A stretch of 64,000 bases of DNA. Source: Dehalococcoidia bacterium. Its GTDB lineage: Bacteria; Chloroflexota; Dehalococcoidia; Lucifugimonadales; JAGWBF01. The stretch lies in the NCBI GenBank assembly GCA_965248905.1, contig CBDFKS010000004.1, positions 14,759-78,758 of the forward strand, read 5' to 3'. The notes under the pieces were generated by a model. It was given only the letters and a program-made list of their open reading frames with translations, made no database searches and had not been told where the DNA came from. A program made the translations under genes and the position numbers. Of this stretch, positions 10,011-25,420 are shown one piece after another; position 1 is the stretch's first letter; every line of letters starts with the position of its first letter.

Positions 10011-10751
10011 ATGTCAGCTATCGTAGCCATACCTGCTCGGTTGAAATCAACCAGGTTCCCTCGCAAGGTCCTTGCAGACATCAATGGCAAACCCATGCTC
10101 TGGCACGTCTGCCAGGGCGTGGCCAAAGCGGAGCAGGTCTCGGCGGTGTGGGTGCTCACCGACAGCTCAGAGGTATATGAGGCGGCTTCGTCCTGGGGCA
10201 TGAAGGCCATGATGACCGCCGAGGAATGTCCATCGGGAACGGCTCGCATAGCCTCGGTGATAGATGTCATAGATGCCGACATAGTGGTCAACGTACAGGC
10301 AGATGAGCCTCTTATCTCGGGTAGTGTAGTTGATGGTGTGGTAGCCGCGCTGGAGGATTCCGATGCCGTGGTGGCCACGCCGGTATATTCCATCAACAAC
10401 ATCGCAGATGTTACGAGTCCCAATGTGGTGAAAGTGGCCCGGGCCTCCGATGGGCGAGCGCTCTACTTCTCCCGCAGTCCGATACCGTACGTAAGGGACT
10501 TCGAGGTAAAGGACTGGCTTGATCAGGCCCCATATTGGGGCCATGTCGGGGTATATGCTTACCGGCGGCAAGTCTTGATTGATTATCTCCACCTACCCGA
10601 GGGCCAGATGGAACGGGCCGAGAAATTGGAGCAGCTTCGCCTCTTGGAAGCAGGACGAGACATACTTACGGTGGAGATCGATTACAGGCCTCACGGAGTG
10701 GACGTGCCTTCGGACCTAGACCTGGTGAAGGGGCTGCTCCAGTCTTCCTGA
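10011..10751 (+). CDS. kdsB: 3-deoxy-manno-octulosonate cytidylyltransferase (CMP-Kdo synthetase)
   Basis: IVAIPARLKSTRFPRKVLADINGKPML, VVNVQADEPLI, ALYFSRSPIPY and EQLRLLEAG align along the whole length with E. coli KdsB. Confidence 0.93.
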   Translation: MSAIVAIPARLKSTRFPRKVLADINGKPMLWHVCQGVAKAEQVSAVWVLTDSSEVYEAASSWGMKAMMTAEECPSGTARIASVIDVIDADIVVNVQADEPLISGSVVDGVVAALEDSDAVVATPVYSINNIADVTSPNVVKVARASDGRALYFSRSPIPYVRDFEVKDWLDQAPYWGHVGVYAYRRQVLIDYLHLPEGQMERAEKLEQLRLLEAGRDILTVEIDYRPHGVDVPSDLDLVKGLLQSS

Positions 10752-10781
10752 ATACATTTGGTCTCCACCTGAAAGCAAAAC

Positions 10782-11663
10782 ATGACAGTCAACGGAGATA
10801 AATCATGGGATAACGCTCTAGAGCCATTTGGGCCGCTGGAGCGAGTGGTAGAGGTAGGCCCATTGCGTATCGGCGATGGCTCCCTGGCCCTTATCGCCGG
10901 CCCATGCGCCATCGAGTCCGAGAACCTTTGTCTCTCCGTAGCCGAGCATCTAGCCTCCATTTGTGCAGAGCTAGGCATACCGTACGTTTTCAAAGCCTCC
11001 TTCGACAAAGCAAATCGCACCTCTCTGAACTCCTTCCGAGGACACGGATTAAACAACGGTGTATCCGTTCTCGCCAAGGTAAAGGAGCAGATTGGAGTTC
11101 CGGTGCTGACAGACGTACATGAGACTGAACAGGTCCAGCCGCTAGCAGATGTGGTGGACATTCTGCAGATACCAGCCTTCCTCAGCCGCCAGACGGACTT
11201 GCTGGTGGAGTGTGGCAGATTGGGACGGGCTGTGAATATCAAAAAGGGCCAGTTTCTACCGCCTGAGGACATGCAATACTCCGCCGAGAAGGTGGCCAAC
11301 TCCGGAACGAAAAACATCCTTCTGACGGAGCGGGGAGCCTTATTCGGATATAGAGATTTGGTAGTGGACATGAGGGGCCTGGTGATCATGAGGTCACTGG
11401 GATACCCGGTAGTGTTCGACGCCACCCACAGCGTACAGCAAATGGGCGGTAGGGGAGGCTCGTCAGGTGGCAGGCCTCATTTCATTCCAGCCCAGATTAG
11501 AGCAGCAGCGGCAGTGGGAATCGATGCCCTATTTATCGAGACTCACCCAGACCCTGACAGCGCCTTGTCCGATGGAGCAACCATGGTACCCTTGGCAAAC
11601 ATCAGGGCTGTGTTAGAGATGGCTTTAGCCATACATTCTACCCACCAAAGGCGCCTGAGCTGA
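10782..11663 (+). CDS. kdsA: 3-deoxy-8-phosphooctulonate (Kdo8P) synthase
   Basis: GIPYVFKASFDKANRTS..SFRG, DVVDILQIPAFLSRQTDL, VVFDATHSVQ and LFIETHPDP are canonical KdsA blocks. Confidence 0.95.
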   Translation: MTVNGDKSWDNALEPFGPLERVVEVGPLRIGDGSLALIAGPCAIESENLCLSVAEHLASICAELGIPYVFKASFDKANRTSLNSFRGHGLNNGVSVLAKVKEQIGVPVLTDVHETEQVQPLADVVDILQIPAFLSRQTDLLVECGRLGRAVNIKKGQFLPPEDMQYSAEKVANSGTKNILLTERGALFGYRDLVVDMRGLVIMRSLGYPVVFDATHSVQQMGGRGGSSGGRPHFIPAQIRAAAAVGIDALFIETHPDPDSALSDGATMVPLANIRAVLEMALAIHSTHQRRLS

Positions 11664-12223
11664 CCACAGGACACGACCGGTCGGAGGCTCGAGAGCTTGC
11701 GAAAGGGTTACAAGTACTCCTTCTGGATGTCGATGGAGTCTTGACCGATGGAGGGATCATACTGTTCGGCACAGAAGGAGAAGCCAAACGTTTCGATGTG
11801 CAGGACGGGATGGGAATCAACCTAGCCAGGGCAGCCGGGCTCAAGGTGGGAATCATCACCTCTAGGACCTCCGATGTCGTACAGCGTCGCGCCGAAGAGT
11901 TGAGCATCGATGAGCTTTTTCAGGGTACCAAACGCAAGGTAGACGCCCTCGACGTCGTTCTCGATAAATATCACATCGAAGCATCCCAAGCAGGCTATAT
12001 AGGCGATGACCTTCAGGACATTCCGATTATGGAACGAGTGGGAATCCCCATCGCGGTCCAAAACGCCGCCGAGCCTGTAAAGGCATGCAGCATGTATGTG
12101 ACCATGGCAGGTGGCGGGCATGGCGCGGTGCGTGAAGCCATCGAATGGCTCCTGGAGCTCCGGGGCGACAGGGATAAGGCATACAAGTCTATTACACACC
12201 GCACCCAATGGACTAGCTCGTAG
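11660..12223 (+). CDS. kdsC: Kdo8P phosphatase (HAD-IIIA); 5' end uncertain, possible CTG start
   Basis: LLLDVDGVLTDG (nucleophile DxD), GIITSR, KRKVDAL and YIGDDLQDIPIM are present. The first canonical start (TTG at 11741) lies after the DVDG motif. The frame is open upstream, and CTG at 11660 overlaps the kdsA stop. Confidence 0.8.
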   Translation: MTTGHDRSEARELAKGLQVLLLDVDGVLTDGGIILFGTEGEAKRFDVQDGMGINLARAAGLKVGIITSRTSDVVQRRAEELSIDELFQGTKRKVDALDVVLDKYHIEASQAGYIGDDLQDIPIMERVGIPIAVQNAAEPVKACSMYVTMAGGGHGAVREAIEWLLELRGDRDKAYKSITHRTQWTSS

Positions 12224-12277: not shown

Positions 12278-13252
12278 ATGGCATTGGACATTAAAGACAA
12301 GACTTTCTTGATAACTGGAGGTACAGGCTCATTCGGCCAAAAATGTACCGAACTTCTTCTCAAGGAAGGCCCTCCCCGGCGACTGGTTATATTTAGCCGG
12401 GACGAGCTAAAGCAGTACGAGATGGAGAAGCGATTCAATCATCCATCCCTACGCTTCTTCATCGGCGACGTCAGGGATAAGGATAGGCTGTATCGGGCTA
12501 TGAACGGCGTGGATTACGTCATCCACGCTGCAGCTTTAAAACAGGTACCAGCCTGCGAGTACAACCCTTTTGAGGCGGTGAAGACCAACATCCTTGGCGC
12601 TGTAAATGTGATAGACGCCTCTATTGATAACCAGGTGGAAAAAGTAATTGCCATCAGCACCGACAAGGCCGTGAACCCGGTTAACCTGTATGGCGCAACC
12701 AAACTGTGCGCTGAAAAACTCTTCGTACAGGGCAACGCATACTCGGGGGGTCGAGCCCGGTTCTCTTGTGCCCGATATGGGAACGTGGTCGGCAGCCGAG
12801 GAAGTGTAATCCCCCTGTTTTTGCAGCAAAAATCTACTGGGAAGGTAACCGTTACGGACAAGCGTATGACTCGTTTCTGGATTACCTTGGAACAGGGCGT
12901 CAGGTTCGTTCTCAGCTGCCTGGAGACCATGGTTGGCGGCGAGATTTTCGTGCCCAAGATCCCGAGCATGAATATCATGGACCTGGTTTCGGCTATTGTG
13001 CCCGAATGTGAAGTAAACTTAACCGGCATACGGCCAGGAGAGAAGATCCACGAGCTACTTATGTCCCCCGACGAGGCACGCCAAGCGTTAGAACGCCCTG
13101 ATATGTACATCATTCAGCCTGCTCACTCATGGTGGCAGATACAGGACTCCGACGGAAGTACCCCTGTACCCGATGAGTTTATCTACAGCAGTGACAACAA
13201 CCCCCATTGGCTCACGGTTGAAGAGATTCAAGGAATGGCTGCGTCCATATGA
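12278..13252 (+). CDS. pseB: UDP-GlcNAc 4,6-dehydratase (inverting), PseB/FlaA1 type
   Basis: LITGGTGSFG, SRDELKQYEM, FFIGDVRD, HAAALKQVP..EYNP, STDKAVNPVNLYGATKL, RYGNVVGSRGSV, RMTRFWIT and GEIFVPKIPS are near-collinear with Helicobacter FlaA1. Confidence 0.9.
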   Translation: MALDIKDKTFLITGGTGSFGQKCTELLLKEGPPRRLVIFSRDELKQYEMEKRFNHPSLRFFIGDVRDKDRLYRAMNGVDYVIHAAALKQVPACEYNPFEAVKTNILGAVNVIDASIDNQVEKVIAISTDKAVNPVNLYGATKLCAEKLFVQGNAYSGGRARFSCARYGNVVGSRGSVIPLFLQQKSTGKVTVTDKRMTRFWITLEQGVRFVLSCLETMVGGEIFVPKIPSMNIMDLVSAIVPECEVNLTGIRPGEKIHELLMSPDEARQALERPDMYIIQPAHSWWQIQDSDGSTPVPDEFIYSSDNNPHWLTVEEIQGMAASI

Positions 13253-13334
13253 CATCCCATTCCAATGTCATTTCACAAACCGGATCATTGGTCTTAATAT
13301 CCCAATACCTCACCAGGTAACCGAAACTCTCAAA

Positions 13335-14180
13335 ATGGAAGAGATCAGCGTTAAAGAACTGTCCCGATACACGCCTTGGGTTGCGAGGTTGGCTGGCGTC
13401 GAGCCCTTCTCAAAGCCGACGAGGAACATCCAGAAAATAGATGCGGAATACGACAAGGATAAGTATGCCGAGCTCTTGAAGTACTTCAAACACAATCCCG
13501 ATGCCGAGCCGAGACAGGTCAAGATCTACGAGTCGGGCAACGGCGCCGATACCGAGGTGTGCATTTCCAAAGGCGGGAAACTGTTATTAACCTCCCATCT
13601 CGAAGCACAGTGCCTGGAAGAAGAGACCCTTGTCAACTGCATAGGAGATGTTATCGGCCAGGCTCCTGTTGTAATCGAGTTAGGGTGTGGATACGGTTAC
13701 AATCTCTTCACACTATCGAAGGCCTATCCCGGCCGTAACTGGATAGGCGGAGAGTACTCCCACAACGCGGTAATTCTTTCTGAGCTCCTATACTCCGATT
13801 GCTCCAACATCAAAATACAGCCATTTAACTGGTATGACGACACCTGGGACATTTTCGAGTCATTGGAGTCAGAAGCTGTCGTATTTACCAGGCATTCCAT
13901 CGAACAGTTGCCCCAGGCGAAATCTGCTCTGCAGACGATGGCCAAATATAAAGCACAGATCAAAAGAGTAGTTCATCTAGAACCCATATATGAACTGTTC
14001 ACACAGCAATCCTCCACACTGGCACAGATGCGGCAGGCTTATATTCTCATGAATGACTATAATACGGACCTCCTGGCCACCCTAACGAACATGAACGTAA
14101 AGATTGAATTGATTCAGGATGACCTGATCGGCGGCAACCCCCTGAATCCTACCTGCGTCGTTCAGTGGACTTTCAGCTGA
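13335..14180 (+). CDS. Class I SAM-dependent methyltransferase
   Basis: Motif I is VVIELGCGYGYNLFTL. The start is set to ATG 13335, after the pseB stop. The ORF-track start at 13173 overlaps pseB. Confidence 0.7.
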   Translation: MEEISVKELSRYTPWVARLAGVEPFSKPTRNIQKIDAEYDKDKYAELLKYFKHNPDAEPRQVKIYESGNGADTEVCISKGGKLLLTSHLEAQCLEEETLVNCIGDVIGQAPVVIELGCGYGYNLFTLSKAYPGRNWIGGEYSHNAVILSELLYSDCSNIKIQPFNWYDDTWDIFESLESEAVVFTRHSIEQLPQAKSALQTMAKYKAQIKRVVHLEPIYELFTQQSSTLAQMRQAYILMNDYNTDLLATLTNMNVKIELIQDDLIGGNPLNPTCVVQWTFS

Positions 14181-15202
14181 ACAATCTGGAGGCAACCAGC
14201 TTCCTGGTCGTAGGCTGTGGATCGATAGGACGTCGTCACCTCCGTAACCTGAAGTCCCTGGGTATATCCAAATTAATGGCCTTAGATGTACAACCTGAGC
14301 GGGCCGAAGCGGTGGCGGAAGAGCTTGGCATATCGACATTTACGAGTTTGTCTCAAGCACTAGAATCATCGCCCGATGTGGTATTCATTAACACTTCAAC
14401 CAGCTTCCATGTGCCTTTGGCCTTGGACGCCGCCAACAACGGCTGCCACATTTTTATCGAAAAGCCCCTTTCGCACAACCTTGATGGCGTGGATGATCTG
14501 ATCGCCCTGGTACAAGCTAAGGAGCTGGTAACGTTGGTGGGTTGCAACATGCGCTTCCATCCGGGGCTAGCCTTAATCAAAAGACTCTTGGACGATGGAG
14601 CAGTTGGGAGGGTACTGGCTGCCAGGGTGCAGGTAGGGCAGTGGCTTCCCGACTGGCACCCCTGGGAGGACTATCGCCACGGTTACAGCGCTCGAAAGGA
14701 GCTGGGTGGCGGTGTCATCCTAGACGCCATCCACGAGCTGGACTACATAGGCTGGTTGCTGGGAGGCCCAGTGCATCAAGTTGTATGCTTTGCCGGCAAC
14801 ACAAGCAGTTTAGAGATCGACACGGAAGACACCGCTGCCATCATGTTGCGCTTCGCCGACGGCGCCATAGGTGAAGTGCACATGGACTATGTGCAGAGGG
14901 CTTACAGCCGCTCCTGCCATATAATAGGCGATATGGGTACTATCCACTGGGACTACACTGATGGTCAGGTCAGGCTGTATTCGGCATCGGAAGAAAGCTG
15001 GCACACCTACTGTAATCCCACCGGATGGGAACCGAATCAGATGTACATCGACGAGATGTGTCATTTCTTACGCTGCCTTTCCGGAGAAGAGGAGCCGGTA
15101 TTGAACGTGACTGAGGGCAAACGAGTACTGGAGCTTGCCCTTGCGGCCAAGCAATCGGCGGATATCGGGGAGGTGGTTGCCATAGGGGAGAACCCTAAGT
15201 GA
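14165..15202 (+). CDS. Gfo/Idh/MocA-family NAD(P) oxidoreductase
   Basis: The N-terminal Rossmann segment is FLVVGCGSIGRRHLRNL. IEKPL and a C-terminal GFO_IDH_MocA_C-like region are also present. Confidence 0.85.
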   Translation: MDFQLNNLEATSFLVVGCGSIGRRHLRNLKSLGISKLMALDVQPERAEAVAEELGISTFTSLSQALESSPDVVFINTSTSFHVPLALDAANNGCHIFIEKPLSHNLDGVDDLIALVQAKELVTLVGCNMRFHPGLALIKRLLDDGAVGRVLAARVQVGQWLPDWHPWEDYRHGYSARKELGGGVILDAIHELDYIGWLLGGPVHQVVCFAGNTSSLEIDTEDTAAIMLRFADGAIGEVHMDYVQRAYSRSCHIIGDMGTIHWDYTDGQVRLYSASEESWHTYCNPTGWEPNQMYIDEMCHFLRCLSGEEEPVLNVTEGKRVLELALAAKQSADIGEVVAIGENPK

Positions 15203-17253
15203 GCCATAACATCGCGGCCATTATTCAGGCCCGGATGGGCTCTAGCAGATTGCCCGGAAAAACTCTGGCGCAAGTCGGCGACAAACCCCTTCTTCAGCAC
15301 CTTATTGATGCGATCAAAGCCTCAGGCTTTGTAAAAGAGATAATCATCTCCACGACGCACAAGGCCCAGGACCAGGTGTTGGTGGAGTTCGCTGAAAAGA
15401 TGGAGTTGAAACACTTTCAGGGAAGTGAAGAGGATGTTCTGGACAGGGTATATCAGTCAGCACGCCACTATCAGGTAGAACACGTGGTGCGAGTCACTCC
15501 TGATTGCCCATTTCTGGACCACAAAGTCATGGATAAGGTTGTCGAGGCCTACCTGTCCGGTCAGTACGATTACGTCAGCAATACCCTTCTTTATACCTAC
15601 CCCGATGGCCTGGACGTAGAAGTATTCTCCTTTACGGCTCTGGAGCGAGCTTGGAAGGAGGCACAGCTCCCATCGGAACGAGAGCACGTAACTCCTTACA
15701 TTCGTAACTCCGGCCACTTCAAGCTTTTCAACGTGGAAAACTCGGTGGACCTTTCACATTTCAAGTGGTCTGTCGATACCGAAGATGACCTGAATTTCGC
15801 CAAGTCAGTTTTCGAAAAGCTCAATGACAACGGGGCTGCGTCAAGTCTGGACGAGGTGCTCACGGTTCTCCAAGACCACCCGGAGCTCCTCTACATAAAT
15901 CAGCAAAGTGTCGTGAATGCCGGCTATTACAAGTCCCTTGTCGACGACCCTCCCGTACCCGCCCGCACAATTCTGACCGGCCGGTCGGAGGCCATGAAAG
16001 ACAAGGCGCAATCCTTAATCCCTTCTTCTACCCAGACCTTCAGCAAGGGCCCCACCCAGCTCGTACAAGGGGTAGCGCCCGTGTTCCTCGCCAGGGGCCA
16101 GGGAAGCCACGTCTGGGACGTGGATGACAACGAGTATATCGACTACCCTATGGCCTTGGGCCCCGTCATCCTTGGCCACAACTACGGCCCCGTGACTGAA
16201 GCGGTGATACGCCAGATGCAGGAAGGGGTGTCTTTCTCCCTACCCCATCCCTTAGAGATAGAGCTGGCAGAAATTTTGGTGGACACACTTCCCTGTGCGG
16301 AGATGGTGCGCTTCGGCAAAAACGGCTCCGACGCCACCTCGGGAGCGGTCCGCGCCGCTCGGGCGTACACGGGAAGAGATATTATCGCTTGCTGCGGGTA
16401 TCACGGCTGGCAGGACTGGTACGTAGGGACTACGACTCGGAACAAGGGTGTGCCGGAAGCGGTCCGACGCCTAACCGTTCCCTTCGAGTACAACAATATC
16501 GAGAGTCTGGAAGAGATTTTCGCCCAGCATTCCGGCCAGGTAGCAGCCGTGATTATGGAACCAATCGGGCTGGTGGAGCCCCGGGACGGGTTCCTGCAAA
16601 AGGTGAAGGAGCTAGCCCATCGCGAAGGTGCTCTGCTGGTCTTCGACGAGATAATCACAGGCTTTAGGCTGTCCTTAGGTGGAGCTCAGGAGTATCTCGG
16701 AGTGGAACCGGACATGGCGGCCTTCGGAAAGGCCATGGCTAACGGCTTTCCGCTGTCCGCGGTGGTGGGTCGCCGGGATGTCATGGAGATTTTCGATGAG
16801 GTCTTTTTCTCGTTCACCTTTGGGGGAGAGGCCATCTCTCTGGCAGCATCTATCGCAACGATCAAAGAAATGCAGAACAAAGGTGTCATATCCCACCTGT
16901 GGGCCCAGGGTCGAAAGCTAAAAGACGGCTACAACGTCATGGCCAAGGAGTTCGGGATCGAACAATACACGGAGTGCGTGGGGTTACCTCCCAGGACAGT
17001 TGCCTTGTTCCGGGATGAAAACGGCGCCGAATCGCTGGTGTTGAAGAGTCTGTTCCAGCAAGAGTGTCTCAGACGTGGTGTCCTATTCTCGGTGGGTCAC
17101 AACATCTGCTACAGCCATAGCGACGAGGATATCGATCATACTCTCCGGGTTTATCGAACGGCTTTGGATATTTTGGCACAGGCTATTCGAGAGGGCGATG
17201 TCCTTGAAAGGCTAGACGGCAAGCCGGTCGAGCCCGTGTTTCGCAAAGCGTAA
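15199..17253 (+). CDS. Fusion protein: SpsF-type nonulosonate/sugar cytidylyltransferase (N) + class-III PLP aminotransferase, GSA-aminomutase-like (C)
   Basis: The N-terminal part is IAAIIQARMGSSRLPGKTL...VRVTPDCPF...HVTPYI (CTP_transf_3/SpsF-like). The C-terminal part is GSHVWDVDDNEYIDY..., GSDATSGAVRAARAYTG, VFDEIITGFR and AAFGKAMANG (Lys). Confidence 0.88.
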   Translation: MSHNIAAIIQARMGSSRLPGKTLAQVGDKPLLQHLIDAIKASGFVKEIIISTTHKAQDQVLVEFAEKMELKHFQGSEEDVLDRVYQSARHYQVEHVVRVTPDCPFLDHKVMDKVVEAYLSGQYDYVSNTLLYTYPDGLDVEVFSFTALERAWKEAQLPSEREHVTPYIRNSGHFKLFNVENSVDLSHFKWSVDTEDDLNFAKSVFEKLNDNGAASSLDEVLTVLQDHPELLYINQQSVVNAGYYKSLVDDPPVPARTILTGRSEAMKDKAQSLIPSSTQTFSKGPTQLVQGVAPVFLARGQGSHVWDVDDNEYIDYPMALGPVILGHNYGPVTEAVIRQMQEGVSFSLPHPLEIELAEILVDTLPCAEMVRFGKNGSDATSGAVRAARAYTGRDIIACCGYHGWQDWYVGTTTRNKGVPEAVRRLTVPFEYNNIESLEEIFAQHSGQVAAVIMEPIGLVEPRDGFLQKVKELAHREGALLVFDEIITGFRLSLGGAQEYLGVEPDMAAFGKAMANGFPLSAVVGRRDVMEIFDEVFFSFTFGGEAISLAASIATIKEMQNKGVISHLWAQGRKLKDGYNVMAKEFGIEQYTECVGLPPRTVALFRDENGAESLVLKSLFQQECLRRGVLFSVGHNICYSHSDEDIDHTLRVYRTALDILAQAIREGDVLERLDGKPVEPVFRKA

Positions 17254-17272
17254 CCTTGAGGAGTTGGTGTTT

Positions 17273-18331
17273 ATGGCGACAAAGATAGAAATCGCAGATT
17301 GCTCAATCGGCGATGGGGAGCCGTGCTTCATCATTGCCGAGGCTGGCTCCAACCACAACGGTAACTTCGAGCAGGCGCTACGCCTTATAGATGTAGCGGT
17401 GGACGCCGGCGCGGACGCGGTAAAATTTCAGCTCTTTCGAGCGAGCAAGCTTTACCCCAAAACCGCAGGGCGAAGCGATTATCTGAAGCTCGACCGCTCC
17501 ATCTACGATATCATCGCCGACATGGAGATGCCCTACGAGTGGTTGCCAAAGCTGGCAAACTATTGTCAAGAAAAGAAGATCATCTTCTTGTCTTCGGTCT
17601 TTGACGAGGAGTCAGTTGACATACTGGACCCCTATGTACCGGCTTACAAAATCGCTTCCTATGAAATGACCCATCTCCCCCTTGTCCGCCACATTGCTAA
17701 GAAAGGCAAGCCGGTCATAATCTCCACAGGCACCGCCAACCTGGAAGAGGTGGATGAGACTGTCGAAGCCTTCTTCGCGACCGAGAACAAGGACTTGATG
17801 TTGATGCAGTGCACTGCGTCGTATCCCGCACCCGTAGAGTCTCTGAACCTTCGGGCAATAACAACCATGAAAGAGTCATTCAAGGTGCCGGTCGGTCTTT
17901 CCGACCACTCCCGGGACCCCTTCGTGGGGCCCATGGCGGCCGTGGCCATGGGAGCGAATCTGGTAGAGAAACACTACACATTAAGCAACCGTCTGCCTGG
18001 GCCGGATCATGCCTATGCTGTCGAGCCTCCAGAGCTTCGCGAGATGGTCCGGAAGATACGGAGCGTATCCGAAAGCTTGGGTACAGGTGAGAAGACTGTG
18101 CACTCGGTAGAGGACGAACTGAGGAGCTTCGCCAGGCGCAGCATCTTCGCCACCAGACACATCGCAGATGGGGAGGTTATCACTTCGGACAACGTCGCTG
18201 TTCTCAGGTGTGGAAAGCTGTCGGCTGGTCTGGAGCCTAGGTATTACGACGAGATATTGGGTAGTAGAGCCCAAAGAGATATCGAGGTAGATTCAGCGAT
18301 CCATGGTGGGGACTATCGGGTGAGGAGTTAG
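17273..18331 (+). CDS. Nonulosonic acid synthase (NeuB/PseI/LegI family) with a C-terminal SAF domain
   Basis: CFIIAEAGSNHNG, DAVKFQLF and SDHS are present. GAGGAG lies 9 nt before ATG 17273. Specificity (Pse, Leg or Neu) cannot be told from the sequence by eye. Confidence 0.9.
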   Translation: MATKIEIADCSIGDGEPCFIIAEAGSNHNGNFEQALRLIDVAVDAGADAVKFQLFRASKLYPKTAGRSDYLKLDRSIYDIIADMEMPYEWLPKLANYCQEKKIIFLSSVFDEESVDILDPYVPAYKIASYEMTHLPLVRHIAKKGKPVIISTGTANLEEVDETVEAFFATENKDLMLMQCTASYPAPVESLNLRAITTMKESFKVPVGLSDHSRDPFVGPMAAVAMGANLVEKHYTLSNRLPGPDHAYAVEPPELREMVRKIRSVSESLGTGEKTVHSVEDELRSFARRSIFATRHIADGEVITSDNVAVLRCGKLSAGLEPRYYDEILGSRAQRDIEVDSAIHGGDYRVRS

Positions 18332-18856
18332 ATGAAGATAGCCTTCATGGGCGGCAAGCAGGCGGGTTGCCTGGGCTTGCTTACGGTTTACGCTGCAGGT
18401 CATCAGCCCACTGCCCTGGTGGCCTACGATGATCTAGTCCAGCAGTTGGCGGATTCCCTGTCATTACCCTGCTATTCGTCTATACGCGACTCAGGTTTCC
18501 AAGATGCTTTGGCACACAATGACCTTTTACTCAGCGTCCATGGGAGGGAGATCGTTCCCAACAGGTTACTAGCGGTTCCACCATTGGGAGGAATTAACGT
18601 CCACCCCTGCCTATATCGGTACAAAGGTGCCGATCCGATCGGCAGGTTTCTTCAGGATGGAATTTCCAAGGCCAGCGTTGGGATCCATTGCATGACCGAC
18701 AAGGTTGATGAAGGTGAAGTGTTAGTGGAGGAGTTTGTTGAAGTCGAAGGCAAGGAGACCGTTGATGGGGTATATAACGCTTTGTACCCCTACTACACCA
18801 CCGCATTGATTAAAGCTCTGAAGATCTTACAAAGTAGACTTCCCGTTAATCCATGA
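18332..18856 (+). CDS. Stand-alone formyltransferase catalytic domain (Fmt N-terminal-domain-like)
   Basis: GGINVHPCL supplies the N-x-H and HCMTDKVDEGEVL supplies the Asp of the N/H/D triad. It is 174 aa with no Fmt C-terminal domain. Confidence 0.75.
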   Translation: MKIAFMGGKQAGCLGLLTVYAAGHQPTALVAYDDLVQQLADSLSLPCYSSIRDSGFQDALAHNDLLLSVHGREIVPNRLLAVPPLGGINVHPCLYRYKGADPIGRFLQDGISKASVGIHCMTDKVDEGEVLVEEFVEVEGKETVDGVYNALYPYYTTALIKALKILQSRLPVNP

Positions 18857-19881
18857 CAAGGGTGCTCTTTCGCGTGGATGCCGGGCTTCACATCGGACTC
18901 GGCCATCTTCAACGATGTCTGTCTCTGGCCACCGCATTAAAGACCTCCTCCGCGGAGAGTAGCTTCCTCGTGAATGAAGACCATAGCAGCGGTGAGCGGG
19001 TAGAGCGATGGGGGTACACGTCTCAGACCCTTCGTGAGGTCCCATCCTGGACTACTGAGGACGCGAAGGTGACAATAGAGACGGCATCGCGATTAGGCTG
19101 TGACAGAGTGGTGGTCGATTCCCACGAAGTGCCTGCAGATTACCTGGCTATGCTTACGGACTCTGAGCTATTTATAATAGCCAGAGATGACCTTGCTCAG
19201 TACACCTTTCCCTGCCAGATGGTATTTAACGGGAACGCGGATGCCCGCCTGTTGCCCTATCATTCCACTAACGGTGATGCGGTGTTTCTTCTGGGTCCAG
19301 AATACGCAGTGTTGGGCCCGCAGTATCAGGAAACAACAGCCCGTAAGGTAAACGCCTCCGTGCAGAACCTCCTGATAACCATGGGCGGTGAAGACCGCTA
19401 TAACCTGGTCCCCGATATCCTCAGCTTGCTGGACTGGATGCCAGGAGATTTTAGCGTCACTGCTGTGATAGGACCATACTCTAGGAACGTCGCAGAGGTG
19501 GAATCAGCTGCAGGAAAATCAAAGAGGACCGTCAAGTTGGTCTACAGTCCATACTCATTGCGAGACGTGATGGTGGAGGCCGACATGGCCATATCAGCCG
19601 CCGGACAGACTCTCTACGATTTGGCCTGTACGGGATGTCCGACCGTGGCGATCAAGGTTGCCGAAAACCAGGTCGGGCAAATGAGGGCTTTCGAAGATGC
19701 AGGATTCCTTCGAGTAGGTGGGAACGCCGAGAAGGACGATGTCCTCTCTCCTCTAAGAGAGATTATCTCATCCTTGCTCTCTGATCCTGAGGCGCGGGCT
19801 GCCATGAGCAAGGTCGGCCGGAGGTTGGTCGACGGTCAAGGAGCCAAGCGAGTCGCCAAGGAGATCTTGGCGCATGTTTAG
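18853..19881 (+). CDS. pseG: UDP-2,4-diacetamido-2,4,6-trideoxy-beta-L-altropyranose hydrolase-like (PseG/SpsG family)
   Basis: VLFRVDAGLHIGLGHLQRCLSLATAL is the typical PseG N-terminus. The C-terminal half is GT-B/GT28-like (ADMAISAAGQTLYDLACTGCP). Confidence 0.85.
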   Translation: MTRVLFRVDAGLHIGLGHLQRCLSLATALKTSSAESSFLVNEDHSSGERVERWGYTSQTLREVPSWTTEDAKVTIETASRLGCDRVVVDSHEVPADYLAMLTDSELFIIARDDLAQYTFPCQMVFNGNADARLLPYHSTNGDAVFLLGPEYAVLGPQYQETTARKVNASVQNLLITMGGEDRYNLVPDILSLLDWMPGDFSVTAVIGPYSRNVAEVESAAGKSKRTVKLVYSPYSLRDVMVEADMAISAAGQTLYDLACTGCPTVAIKVAENQVGQMRAFEDAGFLRVGGNAEKDDVLSPLREIISSLLSDPEARAAMSKVGRRLVDGQGAKRVAKEILAHV

Positions 19882-19930: not shown

Positions 19931-21838
19931 ATGACGCTGCTGGTCTCAGAAATTCATCCCTTCAACCTGTGTATCTTCTGGTTTCTTTCCTTTTTTCTGC
20001 GAATAGAAGCATATAGGATCAACCCGATGTGTCCTGGCTTACTTACCGGAAGGATAAGGGCGGTGGACATCTCCCAACATCTTTCCTGGATCAATACCCA
20101 TTGCTTTCGTTCCGGCGTAGTTCAGCAATGGGAAGAGCTCCTGACCAAGTTTCCAGAAAAGGACTGGAGTCTCCGTTATCGAGGCATGACCCTGGATTTC
20201 TCTACCAAAGCCAAACAGGAGCTAATATCATATTTCGACCAGCTTATGTTGTTACGGATGATTCAACAGCAACGAAGTCAAGGCTCTAAGATTTACATCG
20301 TGGACTCCCCTCAGTTCAGATACTTAAGAAACATGGACCGGTCGGCAGGGGTCTACAAATACCCTGCATTCCCCGTGTTTTCTACGATCAGCATGATGCT
20401 CGATCTGCTGTTTATGTATTTCTCGGTTGCTCAGCGCATGCTCTCGCTGATTGGCGCCATGGTGTATGGGATCGTGCGGCGAGATTCACGCAACCCGCTC
20501 CGAGCAAGAACCGTACCTTACATCTGGGACTCCATCAACTCAAACGAGCTCAGTGTTGATCCCCAGAGGCGCTATTTCCCCTGGATAGTGGACGGCCATC
20601 AGATTCCTATGGAGGAGGTACTGTTCATTGTCCCAAGGGGCGCGGACAAGAATGCCCGGCCGGACCTCCACAATGCCGGCTACCAGGCACATACCCTCCT
20701 GGAGCTGTATCGAATCATTCCGGTCACGGTCCTGCTGGGATGTATTGCCGCCATGATAGCGATGATAGCCAAACAGACGCTGCGATGGCATGGGAATATG
20801 GTATCGATCCAAAAGGCTGCTTACTTCGTCAGGATGATGAGATTGGCGCCGATTACTCAGAGCTTCAAACCCAACTGCTACGTCACCAACATTAGCATGA
20901 TGGGTAATGAAGAGCCGGCCACGGTGTTCTTCAACTCACTGGGCCTTCAGAGCATCATGTACAGCTACAGCTCCAATGCCTATCTGTTCGGAGACGAAAG
21001 CTGCACCTGCGATTATAGGGCCCCGACCTTCGCCCATATTCTGGCTTCTCACCTTCTGGTGTGGCATCGGGATTTCCAGGACTTTATCCAGCAACATCCT
21101 CAGGGAAACACCATTGTTGAAGCTGTTGGCCCGTTGATGTCTGGAGACGAAAGTGTTATGGAGCTGCCACCACATCAGCTTCGAACGGCTCTGGGAATAA
21201 AGTCTGCGAACTGGCAGGATGGTCTAAGCTACGTTTCGTTCTTTGACGTGGCGCCCCCTGTTGATGCTTTGAAGATAGCCAGAAATAGATATCCAGAGCC
21301 TTCCACGGAAGAATACAACGTGGCTTTCCTGGATGATATGATGCGGTTGCTGGAAGACTGCGATAATCTGGCTCTGATCTACAAACCTCAGCGAAGTCTG
21401 GTGGGGCCCAAGTTTTCTTACTCCGAAGGGTTTCGTGGTCTGTTGGACAGGCTGGAATCCAGTGGTCGCGGGTTCATTTTGGACGATACCATCAATCCCT
21501 GGGTCCCCATTGGAATCGCCGACCTGTGTATAAGCATGCCTTTTACTCCTCCTTCCCTTGCCGCGATGCACTACGGCATACCGGGTCTCTTTCACGATCC
21601 GACCGGCATGGCATTGCGCCACCGCTATCAACCCATATCCCATTTCATTACCCACGATTATGACGAGTTAAGGTCAAAGGTTAGAACGTTGCTTTCCAAT
21701 GGCTCACGTTACAATAGAGACAAAGAGATAATATGGTCAGAGGCACGTAGCTTTATCGGTGACCGCCCAGGCATAAACTCCAGCGAGAGATTCCGGAACA
21801 TGCTATGGAAGTTCCATAAAAAGGAGGACCAGACATGA
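19931..21838 (+). CDS. Large uncharacterised membrane-associated protein with a GT-B-like C-terminal module (KP variant of the HP motif)
   Basis: Hydrophobic segments are FSTISMMLDLLFMYFSVAQRMLSLIGAMVYGIV and IIPVTVLLGCIAAMIAMIA. The C-terminus LALIYKPQRS...IADLCISMPFTPPSLAAMHYGIPGLF parallels ORFs 27661 and 33446. The start is uncertain. Confidence 0.6.
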   Translation: MTLLVSEIHPFNLCIFWFLSFFLRIEAYRINPMCPGLLTGRIRAVDISQHLSWINTHCFRSGVVQQWEELLTKFPEKDWSLRYRGMTLDFSTKAKQELISYFDQLMLLRMIQQQRSQGSKIYIVDSPQFRYLRNMDRSAGVYKYPAFPVFSTISMMLDLLFMYFSVAQRMLSLIGAMVYGIVRRDSRNPLRARTVPYIWDSINSNELSVDPQRRYFPWIVDGHQIPMEEVLFIVPRGADKNARPDLHNAGYQAHTLLELYRIIPVTVLLGCIAAMIAMIAKQTLRWHGNMVSIQKAAYFVRMMRLAPITQSFKPNCYVTNISMMGNEEPATVFFNSLGLQSIMYSYSSNAYLFGDESCTCDYRAPTFAHILASHLLVWHRDFQDFIQQHPQGNTIVEAVGPLMSGDESVMELPPHQLRTALGIKSANWQDGLSYVSFFDVAPPVDALKIARNRYPEPSTEEYNVAFLDDMMRLLEDCDNLALIYKPQRSLVGPKFSYSEGFRGLLDRLESSGRGFILDDTINPWVPIGIADLCISMPFTPPSLAAMHYGIPGLFHDPTGMALRHRYQPISHFITHDYDELRSKVRTLLSNGSRYNRDKEIIWSEARSFIGDRPGINSSERFRNMLWKFHKKEDQT

Positions 21839-22545
21839 CTCAAGTGGACAAGGACATTCAAGCCGAAAACGCCGGTTGGACCTTCGAGAATATTGCCGAT
21901 AGCTTCGATGACCACGTTCGCAAATCGGTGCCTCTCTACGATGAAGGCCACGACCTGGTCTGCAAACTCAGCGATTTCTTTCTGCCCGAGGGTGGGGCTG
22001 TGGTGGAGCTGGGTACCTCGACAGGAGTCCTGGCCGGGAAGTTCCTAAAACATAACGAGAGACGTCATGATCTTAGCTACATCGGCATCGATCGCGTCGA
22101 CAGCATGTTGGAGCGGGCGAGGGAGCGATGCGTCCAGGATGGCCGGGCCCTGTTCATCAACGACGATGTAGTCACCTGCCCACTCCCCAAGAGCAACATG
22201 ATCATTTCTTACTACACCATGCAGTTCATCCACCCACGTTGGAGGCAGACCGTCTTCGACAAGATATATGAAGCCCTTGAGTGGGGTGGAGCCTTCGTTC
22301 TATTCGAAAAGGTACGGGCCCCAGATGCCAGGTTCCAGGATATAGCAGCCCAGCTCTACATCGAGTTCAAGCTAGACCAGGCCTTCGATGAGATTGAAAT
22401 CCTCGGAAAGCAACGCAGTCTCAAGGGAGTGCTAGAGCCCTTCTCAACGCAGGGTAACCTGGACTTGATGAAAAGGGCAGGATTCGTGGATATGATGACC
22501 ATTATGAAATCCATCTGCTTCGAGGGATTCCTAGCGATTAAATAA
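21835..22545 (+). CDS. CmoA-like class I SAM-dependent methyltransferase
   Basis: WTFENIADSFDDHVRKSVPLYDEGHDLV resembles the CmoA N-terminal block (F.....FD.H...SVP.Y). Motif I is VVELGTSTGVL. Confidence 0.75.
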   Translation: MTQVDKDIQAENAGWTFENIADSFDDHVRKSVPLYDEGHDLVCKLSDFFLPEGGAVVELGTSTGVLAGKFLKHNERRHDLSYIGIDRVDSMLERARERCVQDGRALFINDDVVTCPLPKSNMIISYYTMQFIHPRWRQTVFDKIYEALEWGGAFVLFEKVRAPDARFQDIAAQLYIEFKLDQAFDEIEILGKQRSLKGVLEPFSTQGNLDLMKRAGFVDMMTIMKSICFEGFLAIK

Positions 22546-22576
22546 GCTTGATTCCAAGTTTGATGAGAATACTCGA

Positions 22577-23647
22577 ATGGTGAAGGAAGACACGTCCAGG
22601 TTATCAACAAGCTCGGAAGCTGACTTATTCAACATCGTTGAGCAAGAGCTAGAGTCTTACGTAGACCTGGCGCTGTTGTCGGCCAATTCAAACGACCTGA
22701 CGAGCGTGTGGCAGAATAGGCTGAACAACGAGCCTCAACGCTTCATCAAGGACGGCTGTTCACTGAACCGGGAGGCCCTTCGTAACTTTCGCCGCATGCA
22801 GATCCTTGTCACTGACAACCCCAGAAACGATTTAAACCCGTTAAACCCTGTAAATATTTTGAGTGGCGGCCGCCGGGGCGAAAGGAAGATGCTCCAAGAG
22901 TGTCTGGCCGTGCTACAGGAACAGGGCTACGGCGAGCTGCTTCGCAAATATCCATGTCACGAGGCGGGCAATCCACACGCCTTCCGCTCCAAAGGGTTCT
23001 CATTTACACTTCGGTGGTTCAAACACATATGCTTCGTGGGCCTGCTGAACAAGGTCCTTGGAAGTCGGTTAGCGAATGAGTTTATTGGTCTGGATATAGG
23101 AAGTAGCTATGGAATATTCGCGAGCCTCGTAAAAAGGGAATATCCAAAATCCCGCCACATTCTGGTAGACTTCCCAGAGCAGCTGATCCTGGCCAAATAT
23201 TTCCTTGCCGCCTGCTTTCCCGAGGCCAGAATCGCAGGCGTCAAGGAGGTCTCCAAGCACGAATCGCTATCCCGGGACTTCATTGAGGACTACGACTTCG
23301 TTCTGGTCCCATCCTCGCTGTATGATCGCTTAACATCGGGCAGTGCCGATCTCGTAACCAACTTCGCCTCATTCGGGGAGATGACACGATATTGGTACGA
23401 GTACTACACGAAATCACCGGCATTCCAGACGGCAAGCTATCTATTCACGGCAAACAGAATTCAGTCGTACCCGACTTACGACACCGACGTGACTATACTC
23501 GACTACCCTGTTTGGGACCCTGAGAAAAGGCTTCATTTCGGTATCTCCCCAGCTTTCTCCGGCTACTATCGCTATCTCAGGCGCCACCTCTTCTTCTCCG
23601 ACAAACGGGGATACCCTCCTTATTTCGAGTATATCGGCGAACTTTAG
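22577..23647 (+). CDS. Putative sugar O-methyltransferase-like protein (class I MTase fold)
   Basis: The motif I-like segment is FIGLDIGSSYGIFASLV, followed by ILVDFPEQL. Its size and context fit the sugar O-methyltransferases of glycan clusters. Confidence 0.6.
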   Translation: MVKEDTSRLSTSSEADLFNIVEQELESYVDLALLSANSNDLTSVWQNRLNNEPQRFIKDGCSLNREALRNFRRMQILVTDNPRNDLNPLNPVNILSGGRRGERKMLQECLAVLQEQGYGELLRKYPCHEAGNPHAFRSKGFSFTLRWFKHICFVGLLNKVLGSRLANEFIGLDIGSSYGIFASLVKREYPKSRHILVDFPEQLILAKYFLAACFPEARIAGVKEVSKHESLSRDFIEDYDFVLVPSSLYDRLTSGSADLVTNFASFGEMTRYWYEYYTKSPAFQTASYLFTANRIQSYPTYDTDVTILDYPVWDPEKRLHFGISPAFSGYYRYLRRHLFFSDKRGYPPYFEYIGEL

Positions 23648-23650
23648 TTC

Positions 23651-25420
23651 ATGAGTTACCAGGTAGTTTTTCATTTTTTGCGCCAATACAGGCTCCTTTA
23701 CGGCGGGATATTGGTCGTCACACTTATCGCCTCCGCCCTGGAGAGCTTGAGCCTAGCAGCATTCTTCCCGGTGTTCACCTCCGTGCTCGATGACTCGACA
23801 GAAGGAGTGGGAGGGATATTAGGCGTCATTACCAGCATAGCGGAGAGGTTTCCCTTCGACGATCCTATAATATCGGCATCCGTTCTGCTAGTCAGCTTGT
23901 TCGTAGCTAAAACGATCTTCACAATGGCGCGCGAAGGCTTGATTGCCTATAGTAGCGGCAAAGTGTTGTACGACACCAAAAACCGAATAATGGAAAAGTA
24001 TGCCGGCTCCGACTATCAATTTTTCTTGGACAACAAACAAGGGTCCATGATTTATAGCGGCTTACAGGCTCCTCATCACATGGCCCATGTACTGCTTCGG
24101 TTTTCCCAGATGGTTGGCGAGCTGTTCCGGACAATCGCCATTATTATCGTTTTGCTATTCGTGTCACCCTTCGCGACCATAGCTCTTGCGATCCTGGCCC
24201 TGGGCTACTCCGGAGTCATCCACGATCTTTCAAAGAGGATGTCATACCGTTTCGGCCAGAGAAGGGCCAGTGCCTTGGCAGAGCAGACCGTCATCGCCAA
24301 CGAGTTCTTCACCGGAATCCGGCAGATCATCGCTTATTGCTCCGGGGGATCGTGGTTAGAGAGGTTTCGCAAAGAAAACCGCGTCTCCAGTGAAATGTAC
24401 GCGAAAGACCTGGCGTGGGTCGCCATGCCCAAAAGCATAATGGAGCTTGCTGGTGTAGCGCTTATGATGGGCCTTGTCCTGCTGTTATGGTTCGTTACGG
24501 CGGATACCTTTGCAGATGCCCTGCCCAGGCTTGGGGTCTTCGCCGTGGCCTTGATCCAGCTACTTCCTTCGATTACCAACTTCGGGCGAATGAGGATGCA
24601 GATAATGGGCGCGATGCCAGATACTGAGCTGGTGTACAATACTCTCACCGGCCCGGCACCGACCCGTGTGGACGGCAATAAGAACGTGGACTCCTTCGAG
24701 AAGGCCATCGCATTCGAAGATGTATCATTCGCATACAAAGGTAGGGATACCTTATTGGATCGAGTCGACATGGTCTTTGAAAAGGGGAAGACTACTGCCT
24801 TGGTGGGCCCTTCGGGTGCAGGCAAGACCACCATCATCAACCTCATTCTAGGGCTGTTCGAGCCTACTAACGGACGCATAACACTGGACGGTGTGTCCCT
24901 CGGGGAATACAAGCTGGCAAGCTGGCTCGGGAAAATCGGCTTCGTGAGCCAGGAGCCCTTCATATACAACTCCACTGTGGCCGCCAACATTACCTTCACC
25001 AGAAACGGCCACTCTATGGAGTCGATCATAACTGCGGCTAGCATCGCCAACGCCCACGGACTCATCTCCGATCTTCCCCAGGGATACGATACGATCGTCG
25101 GGGATAGGGGCATGAAGCTCTCAGGCGGCCAACAGCAACGCATCGCCATAGCTAGGGCAGTGCTGGACCAGCCCGAACTACTGATATTCGACGAAGCTAC
25201 AAGCTCCCTGGACACCCTCTCGGAGAAGCTGGTGCAAGAGGCCATCGAGAACGTCTCCAAAGATCGCACAGTGATCATAATCGCCCATCGGCTCTCGACG
25301 ATAAGATACGCTGACAAAATAATCGTTATGGACAGCGGTCGAGTAATCGAGGAAGGAACCCATGACGAACTGTTAAGTCAGCAGGGCCATTATTCCCGTC
25401 TGGTGGCTTCATCCACGTAA
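23651..25420 (+). CDS. ABC exporter, fused TMD-NBD (MsbA/PglK-like)
   Basis: The N-terminal half has six hydrophobic spans. Walker A is GPSGAGKTT, the signature is LSGGQQQRIAIARA and Walker B is LLIFDEATS. Confidence 0.93.
   Translation: MSYQVVFHFLRQYRLLYGGILVVTLIASALESLSLAAFFPVFTSVLDDSTEGVGGILGVITSIAERFPFDDPIISASVLLVSLFVAKTIFTMAREGLIAYSSGKVLYDTKNRIMEKYAGSDYQFFLDNKQGSMIYSGLQAPHHMAHVLLRFSQMVGELFRTIAIIIVLLFVSPFATIALAILALGYSGVIHDLSKRMSYRFGQRRASALAEQTVIANEFFTGIRQIIAYCSGGSWLERFRKENRVSSEMYAKDLAWVAMPKSIMELAGVALMMGLVLLLWFVTADTFADALPRLGVFAVALIQLLPSITNFGRMRMQIMGAMPDTELVYNTLTGPAPTRVDGNKNVDSFEKAIAFEDVSFAYKGRDTLLDRVDMVFEKGKTTALVGPSGAGKTTIINLILGLFEPTNGRITLDGVSLGEYKLASWLGKIGFVSQEPFIYNSTVAANITFTRNGHSMESIITAASIANAHGLISDLPQGYDTIVGDRGMKLSGGQQQRIAIARAVLDQPELLIFDEATSSLDTLSEKLVQEAIENVSKDRTVIIIAHRLSTIRYADKIIVMDSGRVIEEGTHDELLSQQGHYSRLVASST

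Follow-up and report, generated by a model that had tools for sequence, protein, structure and literature searches.

A nonulosonic acid operon without pseC in a Dehalococcoidia polysaccharide locus, and a predicted amino-tailoring cassette built around an SpsF–aminotransferase fusion

Overview of the cluster

A nonulosonic acid gene cluster occupies positions 12278 to 19881 of a 64,000-nucleotide stretch of Dehalococcoidia DNA (assembly GCA_965248905.1, contig CBDFKS010000004.1), which is referred to here in its full length as the window. The explanation that we favour, and hold with moderate confidence, is that the cluster is the core of a pseudaminic/legionaminic-type operon from which pseC has been lost, and that the class-III aminotransferase fused to its SpsF-type cytidylyltransferase is an extra tailoring enzyme. 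Comparison with relatives indicates that a widespread, uncharacterised cassette for the tailoring of nonulosonic acids is present in the window in a recombinant form specific to its lineage. Judging from gene fusions and from analogy with known systems, the Gfo/Idh/MocA oxidoreductase (Gfo) and the class-III aminotransferase of this cassette probably add an extra amino group to the nonulosonate. A more specific version of the proposal is tentative, and we are somewhat inclined to doubt it in its entirety: the Gfo/SpsF/class-III cassette would convert the C8 or C4 hydroxyl of a CMP-activated sugar of the pseudaminic (Pse) or legionaminic (Leg) type into an amine that is N-acetylated, N-methylated or free depending on the lineage, and the window would be a variant with N-formyl and N-methyl groups that either draws on a PseC acting in trans or has a 7-hydroxy backbone.

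The order of the genes, as an earlier note on this DNA had given it from PseB through methyltransferase, Gfo, SpsF::aminotransferase, synthase and formyltransferase to PseG, is borne out by the open reading frame (ORF) listing and by profile searches. The features are as follows, with the evidence in brackets; loci used for comparison carry L numbers.

12278..13252, + strand: PseB, UDP-GlcNAc 5-inverting 4,6-dehydratase (profile and PDB matches)
13253..13334, no strand: spacer of 82 bp, the pseC slot of relatives, taken as a deletion scar (alignment with L082 and L083)
13335..14180, + strand: class I S-adenosylmethionine (SAM)-dependent methyltransferase, 281 aa, overlapping the start of gfo
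14165..15202, + strand: Gfo/Idh/MocA NAD(P) oxidoreductase, predicted nonulosonate-hydroxyl oxidase (PF01408, PF02894, PF22725)
15199..17253, + strand: SpsF-type cytidylyltransferase::class-III aminotransferase, 684 aa (PF02348 and PF00202)
17264..18331, + strand: NeuB-family nonulosonate synthase, SpsE-like (PF03102 and SAF domain)
18332..18856, + strand: short formyltransferase, 174 aa (Formyl_trans_N), in the slot of the relatives' PseH-like GNAT (PF00551)
18853..19881, + strand: PseG, UDP-sugar hydrolase (TIGR03590)

Features and distribution of the fusion protein

The 684-aa fusion protein comprises a CTP_transf_3 domain at residues 6-180 and an Aminotran_3 domain at residues 262-683, so that the SpsF-type part spans approximately 15199-15978 and the class-III aminotransferase 15979-17253. 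The class-III domain matches PRK06209, a glutamate-1-semialdehyde (GSA)-aminomutase-like family, with 464 bits. Lys511, situated in a GK motif, and Asp483-Glu484 are among the residues that are invariant across 12 homologues; we take Lys511 and the aspartate of Asp483-Glu484 to be the usual lysine and binding aspartate for pyridoxal phosphate (PLP). Metagenomic homologues are very numerous, and the best 120 share 60-95% identity and the same two-domain architecture. Those that have a name carry no annotation beyond “glutamate-1-semialdehyde aminomutase / SpsF” or “aminotransferase”. With one genome scanned per GTDB species, the fusion was located in at least 579 species, with carriers among Dehalococcoidia, Thermodesulfobacteriota, Planctomycetia, Omnitrophota, Acidobacteriota, Verrucomicrobiota, Woesearchaeota and others. 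The closest species-level matches belong to Dehalococcoidia and are 71-72% identical.

The gene neighbourhood of the fusion was sampled in 80 fetched loci, and the counts of DegT, GNAT and formyltransferase genes refer to the 66 of these that are at least 15 kb long. Antisense ORFs masked pseC or pseB in high-GC loci, and gene content was set by tblastn. PseB, PseG and NeuB accompany the fusion in most of the 80 loci, the commonest order being PseB, DegT, (GNAT), Gfo, fusion, PseG, NeuB. A gene of the DegT family, to which PseC belongs, lies within 10 kb of the fusion in 64 of the 66 loci, and seven relatives have two such genes within 22 kb. Where the DegT protein encoded next to PseB was scored on the PseC model TIGR03588 (L082, L001, L026 and L086), all four reached 461-499 bits against a cut-off of 423.5. 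PseG of the relatives is often ~500 aa long with a C-terminal GNAT domain, and the free small GNATs of relatives show weak similarity to PseH. Since the fusion thus coexists with a full PseB/PseC/PseH/PseG/synthase set in relatives, the class-III enzyme is an addition to this set and not an alternative to PseC. We also note a B12-binding radical-SAM enzyme (~570-590 aa) that several relatives encode between PseC and either Gfo or NeuB (L001 7154-8929, L019 4545-6260, L086 4880-6601); its recurrence suggests C-methylation or another radical sugar modification in those lineages.

These neighbourhoods bear on the proposal of the earlier note that the class-III aminotransferase might take the place of PseC. 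In such a displacement, which would have followed the loss of pseC in the lineage of the window, the UDP-4-keto sugar would be aminated at C4 by the class-III enzyme and the resulting amine acylated by the formyltransferase. The 64 kb hold no DegT gene, and a formyltransferase implies an amine to be acylated; moreover, PseB, PseG and NeuB are under purifying selection, so the 4-keto sugar must have an onward route. Nevertheless, a DegT gene stands beside the fusion in nearly all relatives, and it is PseC in the four tested, among them the sister contig L082. The fusion of the window has not diverged in a specific manner either: of 170 columns with at least 95% conservation in the relatives, it departs from the consensus at 6, no excess over the 5 departures in PseC-bearing L082, and its dN/dS (ratio of nonsynonymous to synonymous substitution rates) is 0.09. 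Finally, its partners are a CMP-transferase and Gfo, which points to a late substrate at the CMP level rather than to a UDP-hexos-4-ulose. Substitution for PseC as the general function of the class-III aminotransferase was therefore rejected on grounds of coexistence and lack of specific divergence, and a displacement confined to the lineage of the window is improbable. The gene neighbourhoods support instead a predicted role as a conserved tailoring enzyme that is no surrogate of PseC.

The oxidoreductase, the methyltransferase and related systems

The closest PDB structure of the window Gfo is 3EZY, which is also the nearest solved structure of ElaA, an enzyme discussed below. Among the other best matches are RgNanOx (6Z3B/6Z3C) and YjhC (6O15), with E-values of 8e-21 to 8e-17. 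The association of Gfo with the fusion is close. A single protein of ~1,030 aa, Gfo::SpsF::aminotransferase, is present in 25 of 75 relatives, and an archaeal locus from Methanofastidiosum encodes GNAT::Gfo followed by SpsF, class-III aminotransferase, NeuB and formyltransferase. A second GNAT type occurs in 21 of the 66 loci and lies directly upstream of gfo in the loci inspected.

The gene between the spacer and gfo was listed as an ORF of 335 aa starting at 13173, for which the profile evidence amounts to a weak methyltransferase motif only. The reading frame is over-extended by 54 N-terminal codons, and the real ATG lies near 13335, as supported by 95 methyltransferase homologues of ~280 aa and by alignment with sister loci. 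The possibility that this ORF is a degenerate DegT or reductase was rejected, since it belongs to a family of 281-aa class I SAM methyltransferases. The family is small and tied to nonulosonate genes: one homologue is fused to NeuB, and another, partial, carries a Gfo N-terminal domain. In L082 the methyltransferase gene stands between those of PseC and Gfo, and in L015 it follows the fusion.

Two reported systems modify nonulosonates through a keto intermediate. In A. baumannii KL49, the CTP-transferase ElaB makes CMP-Leg5,7Ac2, the Gfo/Idh/MocA enzyme ElaA is proposed to oxidise C8, and ElaC, a short-chain dehydrogenase/reductase (SDR), is proposed to re-reduce the 8-keto intermediate to the 8-epimer (PMC13656337). 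The cassette of the window has in common with ElaABC a CTP-transferase and a member of the Gfo/Idh/MocA family, and it would follow the same logic of an oxidation to a ketone that a third enzyme then processes, the comparison being one of descriptions and of the shared structure match 3EZY. It differs in that the third enzyme is a PLP-dependent aminotransferase instead of an SDR, so that amination is predicted in place of epimerisation, and in that ElaB is PseF-like and unfused. The prophage-encoded EpaA is a CTP_transf_3::aldo-keto-reductase fusion, which together with the SDR EpaB converts Pse to 8-epi-Pse (PMC12053666). Here the likeness lies in the fusion of CTP_transf_3 to an enzyme that handles the oxidised nonulosonate, comparable to SpsF::aminotransferase, whereas the partner of EpaA is a reductase, and the oxidase, EpaB, is an SDR and not a Gfo/Idh/MocA enzyme. 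The module holds no second reductase of the ElaABC/EpaAB type, whether SDR or aldo-keto reductase, and the class-III aminotransferase stands in that role; by analogy, the cassette would work like an ElaABC/EpaAB module without being of the epimerase kind. A search of a phage collection gave no EpaA-like match.

Other precedents concern the separate steps. RgNanOx and YjhC are Gfo/Idh/MocA enzymes that oxidise the C4 hydroxyl of sialic acid, also a nine-carbon sugar; unlike the predicted function of the window Gfo, they are catabolic, recycle NAD within the reaction, act on a substrate that is not CMP-activated and have no aminotransferase partner (PMC7535918). Aminoglycoside C-6' aminotransferases (7LM0, 7LLD and 9AUE; E-values 1e-47 to 6e-35) are among the closest PDB matches of the aminotransferase domain that are named for a sugar substrate. 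They are likewise class-III, GSA-aminomutase-like enzymes that aminate a sugar carbonyl, which in the C-6' system is produced by a partner oxidase. In contrast to the predicted substrate of the window enzyme, theirs are pseudo-oligosaccharides, with neither nucleotide activation nor fusion to a cytidylyltransferase.

The earlier note had also considered that the oxidoreductase/aminotransferase pair adds an amino group to an ulosonic acid, by analogy with the formation of 8-amino-Kdo (Kdo, 3-deoxy-D-manno-octulosonic acid) in Shewanella. The first part of this claim is the better reading, in view of the Gfo::SpsF::aminotransferase and GNAT::Gfo fusions and of ElaABC and EpaAB. The Kdo analogy fared less well. 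KdnB and KdnA of Shewanella, an iron alcohol dehydrogenase and a DegT-like aminotransferase, act on the primary alcohol of Kdo and resemble the window pair in that an oxidase and an aminotransferase turn a hydroxyl of an ulosonic acid into an amine. The window pair might act in the same fashion on Kdo, for which kdsB, kdsA and kdsC directly upstream and kdsD downstream would provide. Across the 80 relatives, however, the fusion travels with PseB, PseC, PseG and NeuB, and Kds genes lie near it in few, such as L001, L002 and L012. The locus also has its own KdsB, and the fused SpsF domain is the sole candidate found for a nonulosonate cytidylyltransferase. A Kdo substrate is largely rejected on these neighbourhood grounds and is extremely improbable.

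In the searched literature we found no account of the fusion, or of an 8-amino or triamino nonulosonate, beyond mentions in Legionella gene tables. The table for the O-antigen genes of L. pneumophila serogroups 6 and 12 lists three neighbouring genes, for PseG, a GSA-aminomutase-like protein and an SpsF-like cytidylyltransferase (PMC3694923), and the nonulosonate-cluster genes of L. interrogans include a second aminotransferase without an assigned step (PMC3438082). The Legionella and Leptospira genes may represent cultured carriers of the unfused module; Acidobacteriaceae isolates and Desulfomonile tiedjei are further cultured candidates for carrying the cassette.

Loss of pseC and exchange of the GNAT gene

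The absence of PseC from the whole window, as claimed in the earlier note, was confirmed in several ways. Family scans of most other large ORFs of the window gave no DegT protein, and when 62 DegT proteins of related loci were searched by tblastn against the full 64 kb, none matched a DegT sequence; the sole significant hit was pseG, retrieved by a DegT::PseG fusion query. No remnant of DegT was detected by tblastn in the 82-bp spacer. Similarly, tblastn with the PseH-like GNATs of relatives matched nothing in the 64-kb window, including the GNAT at 41603-42700. The latter is the only GNAT of the window and is of another type (Acetyltransf_9), so the reported lack of an adjacent PseH-type GNAT also holds. 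The junction between PseB and methyltransferase, with its 82-bp spacer, is identical in the independent ENA assembly L083, and the Logan assembly L084 has the gene order and spacing of the window; an assembly artefact was rejected as the cause of the pseC gap because these assemblies share the junction and layout.

The sister contig L082 has the same flanks as the window (two amidases, MarR, NusG, kdsB, kdsA, kdsC, pseB), and its order is PseB, PseC (403 aa), methyltransferase (281 aa), Gfo, fusion, NeuB, GNAT (142 aa), PseG and PFTS. In L083 and L084, whose fusion is 95% identical to that of the window, the order is PseB, methyltransferase, Gfo, fusion, NeuB, formyltransferase and PseG. Comparison of these layouts indicates that pseC was cleanly removed, leaving the 82-bp spacer, and that the formyltransferase took the place of the GNAT located between neuB and pseG. 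L085, which comes from the same sample as L082, presents a methyltransferase (MT'), Gfo', DegT, a class-III aminotransferase without SpsF, NeuB, formyltransferase and PseG, and is followed by PFTS onward. The window is 89% identical to L085 in the aminotransferase domain, 89% in NeuB and 84% in the formyltransferase, and to L082 86% in the aminotransferase domain and 81% in NeuB, with no match for the formyltransferase. These three parts are therefore nearer to L085 than to L082, and the locus is a recombination mosaic. Insertion sequence (IS) elements with rve-type transposases lie in or next to the orthologous loci (L083 16125-17131, L082 19320-20493, L085 2765-3981), and the locus is a hot spot of insertion as well as of recombination.

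The formyltransferase matches PF00551 with 53 bits and retains an Asn-x-His motif (...GINVHP...) and an Asp motif (...DKVDEG...), which are presumably the catalytic residues of sugar N-formyltransferases. GDP-perosamine and dTDP-sugar N-formyltransferases are among its PDB neighbours. Its family has 235 short members of ~165-195 aa, and one partial member also bears Glyco_tran_28_C, the Pfam domain of the long PseG of relatives. A PseH-like GNAT occurs in 3 of the 12 loci that have the formyltransferase vs 44 of the 54 others (Fisher p = 3e-4; the loci are phylogenetically non-independent). This negative association supports the suggestion of the earlier note that the formyltransferase stands in for PseH. 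The DegT gene is kept in 11 of the 12 loci; among the contexts examined besides the window, L025 alone is without it. L085, L086 and L087 all combine the order NeuB-formyltransferase with a DegT gene, and in L085 and L086 the gene in the PseG position follows directly. The GNAT thus appears to have been swapped for a formyltransferase repeatedly, in relatives that keep PseC, and in other genomes the formyltransferase is predicted to act downstream of the DegT-type enzyme. A preprint on Ca. Kuenenia describes formylated nonulosonates along with a formyltransferase encoded in the cluster. Compared with L083/L084, the formyltransferase gene of the window has a dS of 0.04, that of its neighbours being ~0.2.

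The window has every gene of the module in intact form. Measured against L083/L084, which are without pseC as well, it shows a dS of ~0.2 and the following dN/dS values: pseB 0.04, gfo 0.15, fusion 0.09, neuB 0.125 and pseG 0.11; the flanking amidase and nusG genes give 0.10. No conserved position has changed in PseB or NeuB, one has in Gfo, and PseG has one conservative change. Given this purifying selection and the retention of conserved positions, the module looks functional and the job of the aminotransferase unchanged.

Dehydratase, hydrolase, synthase and the stereochemistry of the sugar

PseB of the window attains 490.1 bits on TIGR03589 (cut-off 407.75), and its closest PDB structure is that of H. 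pylori PseB (2GN4, 360 bits); by score, the predicted dehydratase is a true PseB. PseG scores 178.5 bits on TIGR03590 (cut-off 153.55). The synthase, in contrast, falls under the cut-offs of both the PseI model TIGR03586 (311.6 vs 340.25 bits) and NeuB_NnaB (361.4 vs 399.65 bits), and its best PDB match is B. subtilis SpsE (1VLI, 308 bits) rather than PseI (8H2C, 224 bits). As the synthase stays below the PseI and NeuB/LegI cut-offs and is nearest to SpsE, “pseudaminic” is used here as a working label only. The cytidylyltransferase domain (PF02348) is of the SpsF type, in keeping with the JGI names of the fusion homologues, which end in “.../SpsF”; its closest solved relative is the uncharacterised cytidylyltransferase 6OEW, and no PseF equivalog is among the profile matches listed for the fusion protein.

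In comparison with the canonical CMP-Pse pathway of Helicobacter and Campylobacter (PseB, PseC, PseH, PseG, PseI, PseF), the window has equivalog-grade PseB and PseG, a NeuB-family synthase and a PF02348 domain, and relatives of the cluster have, in addition, a PseH-like GNAT and a PseC, which was of equivalog grade in all four cases tested. The window deviates from this pathway by the lack of PseC and PseH, by a synthase nearer to SpsE than to PseI, by the fusion of its SpsF-type domain to a class-III aminotransferase, and by the additional Gfo, methyltransferase and formyltransferase. The B. subtilis Sps pathway to CMP-legionaminic acid (SpsM/C/D/G/E/F), to which SpsE belongs and which is reported to yield legionaminic acid by means of PseG-like and SpsF enzymes, has in common with the window the SpsE-type synthase, the SpsF-type domain and the PseG-family hydrolase (PMC7439481). 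Sps has the DegT enzyme SpsC and the acetyltransferase SpsD; neither a DegT nor a suitable acetyltransferase is present in the window. Conversely, Sps is without Gfo or class-III aminotransferase, and its dehydratase is retaining, while that of the window scores as an inverting PseB.

The losses of pseC and of the PseH-like GNAT concern exactly the two steps that handle the 4-amine, which raises the alternative that there is no 4-amination at all. The RmlD-like reductase encoded at 35273-36217 would then reduce the product of PseB and lead to a 5-amino-3,5,9-trideoxy nonulosonate with a 7-hydroxy group, similar to fusaminic acid; Gfo and the class-III aminotransferase would add the sole further amine, and the formyltransferase would acylate it. 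An RmlD-family reductase is present in the locus, and homologues with ~38% identity reside inside the nonulosonate module of the acidobacterial loci L049, L052, L057, L067 and L072, although four of these five keep DegT. The exception, L049, is also without DegT, GNAT and formyltransferase. In the window itself, the reductase is 15 kb away from the module and may serve another 6-deoxy-hexosamine. PseG and the synthase retain nearly all conserved residues and give no hint of an altered substrate, and the formyltransferase accompanies DegT in all other contexts examined except L025. We regard this alternative as unlikely, though worth keeping in view. In the acidobacterial sub-family just mentioned, the triple fusion and a divergent NeuB are separated by the RmlD-like reductase instead of PseG (~12040-12980 in most of these loci). 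In addition, an RmlD-like::DegT fusion directly follows PseB in the Planctomycetia locus L009 (4159-6333).

Proposed route

In the explanation that we favour, namely a nonulosonate operon core with an added tailoring enzyme, the pathway would start with PseB, which by family assignment converts UDP-GlcNAc to the 4-keto-6-deoxy sugar. Amination at C4 would most likely be carried out by a DegT-family enzyme encoded elsewhere in the genome. Such supply of PseC activity in trans is the most likely solution because DegT paralogues are common and the usual partner of the formyltransferase is DegT-type. The formyltransferase would replace PseH and N-formylate the 4-amine, as the patterns of gene replacement suggest. 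PseG would then take off UDP, the SpsE-like synthase would join the hexose with phosphoenolpyruvate, and the SpsF domain would produce the CMP-sugar. At the level of the nonulosonate or CMP-nonulosonate, Gfo is predicted to oxidise a hydroxyl, either at C8 by analogy with ElaA or at C4 by analogy with RgNanOx, and the fused class-III aminotransferase would turn the ketone into an extra amine, for which the fusions and the analogies argue. The 281-aa methyltransferase may methylate this amine; in some lineages a Gfo-associated GNAT would acetylate it, and the methyltransferase holds the position of that GNAT in the lineage of the window.

Several points weigh against this route. No pseC for the supply in trans was found, in a search that covered the 64-kb window of a contig of ~295 kb. 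The function of the whole fusion family is predicted from sequence and analogy; the amination site may be C8 or C4, and a CMP-sugar is the putative substrate by analogy only. The reaction of ElaA, on which part of the analogy draws, was itself proposed from genetics, structures and docking (PMC13656337). Several relatives that bear the module are without a spare N-acyltransferase, so the extra GNAT of some loci provides partial support only. The formyltransferase of the window shows a dN/dS of 0.55, on 14 substitutions only, and the pattern of dS and dN could reflect recent exchange between strains or relaxed constraint. Both L083 and L084 have a frameshift in the methyltransferase gene, and L083 has in addition a split formyltransferase and an IS within the PFTS gene; lesions of this kind hint that some of the locus can be dispensed with or is in decay.

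Taken further, the last point would make the cluster a decaying remnant, a pathway dead or being dismantled after the loss of pseC, whose odd gene content has no meaning. Besides the lesions named, kdsA is split in L084, and IS elements occur in L082 and L085 too. Some of the frameshifts, however, fall in low-coverage long-read assemblies, all genes of the window are intact, and pseB, gfo, the fusion, neuB and pseG have dN/dS values (0.04-0.15) like those of flanking housekeeping genes at a dS of ~0.2. Decay as an account of the cluster is highly improbable.

Surroundings of the locus

The nonulosonate module lies within a one-strand block of ~40 kb, which begins with a MarR-type regulator followed by an RfaH/NusG-like regulator. 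This block is a surface-polysaccharide locus holding genes for Kdo as well as for nonulosonic acid, and it also encodes a radical-SAM enzyme, a TIGR04326 surface-carbohydrate protein, glycosyltransferases, UDP-ManNAc(A) genes and several methyltransferases. Other features of the window are:

10011..12223, + strand: kdsB, kdsA and kdsC for CMP-Kdo supply, directly upstream of pseB (NCBIfam KdsB/KdsA/KdsC above cut-offs)
19931..25420, + strand: downstream operon-like block of four genes (NCBIfam TIGR04417, TIGR00740-like, TIGR04371 and ABC families)
32481..33449, + strand: KdsD/KpsF arabinose-5-phosphate isomerase, which completes the Kdo pathway of the locus (NCBIfam)
35273..36217, + strand: RmlD-family 4-ketoreductase (PF04321, 194 bits)
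41603..42700, + strand: GNAT with Acetyltransf_9 and a C-terminal part of unknown family, not PseH-like (Pfam)

The order kdsB-kdsA-kdsC recurs in the sister contigs L082, L083 and L002. The downstream block encodes a PFTS-motif polysaccharide protein, a CmoA-like methyltransferase, a NanM-like sugar O-methyltransferase and an MsbA/PglK-like ABC exporter, and is syntenic with L082, L083 and L085. For the RmlD-like protein, the top PDB matches are dTDP-4-dehydrorhamnose reductases. Two tandem amidase genes (GatA/AtzE-like; 5083-8065, minus strand) flank the locus and are kept in L082, L083 and L084, where they serve as synteny anchors. A 589-aa ORF at 25841-27610 has no family match, and it is unmatched in L085, though L085 matches the flanking genes for the ABC exporter and a glycerophosphotransferase-like protein. 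Further downstream, 43618-49286 encodes a 732-aa fusion of a zinc-type alcohol dehydrogenase with Gfo/Idh/MocA, the second Gfo domain of the window, followed by a LegB/GalE-like SDR epimerase/dehydratase, a UDP-ManNAc dehydrogenase-like gene and wecB. These genes seem to form a branch of the locus in its own right, for an amino sugar or a uronic acid. A homologue of the GNAT at 41603-42700 is encoded in the Vicinamibacterales locus L061 (2347-3432), four genes upstream of PseB, and this GNAT type may belong more generally to nonulosonate or polysaccharide loci.

Significance

Nonulosonic acids cap many microbial surface glycans and flagellins, and they shape immune recognition, phage adsorption and surface charge. 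To our knowledge, and in the literature searched, their backbone types carry two amino groups at most. If the proposal is correct, the cassette would give rise to nonulosonic acids with an additional backbone amine, for example 5,7,8-triamino-3,5,7,8,9-pentadeoxy sugars, and its class-III transaminase would represent a new enzyme activity on a CMP-keto-sugar. The annotation “glutamate-1-semialdehyde aminomutase / SpsF” is misleading for these genes. The window illustrates how such loci diversify through deletion and cassette swapping. With carriers that span Acidobacteriota, Thermodesulfobacteriota, Planctomycetota, Chloroflexota, Omnitrophota and archaea, the cassette would provide hundreds of species, most of them uncultured, with a new type of backbone and an altered sugar charge.

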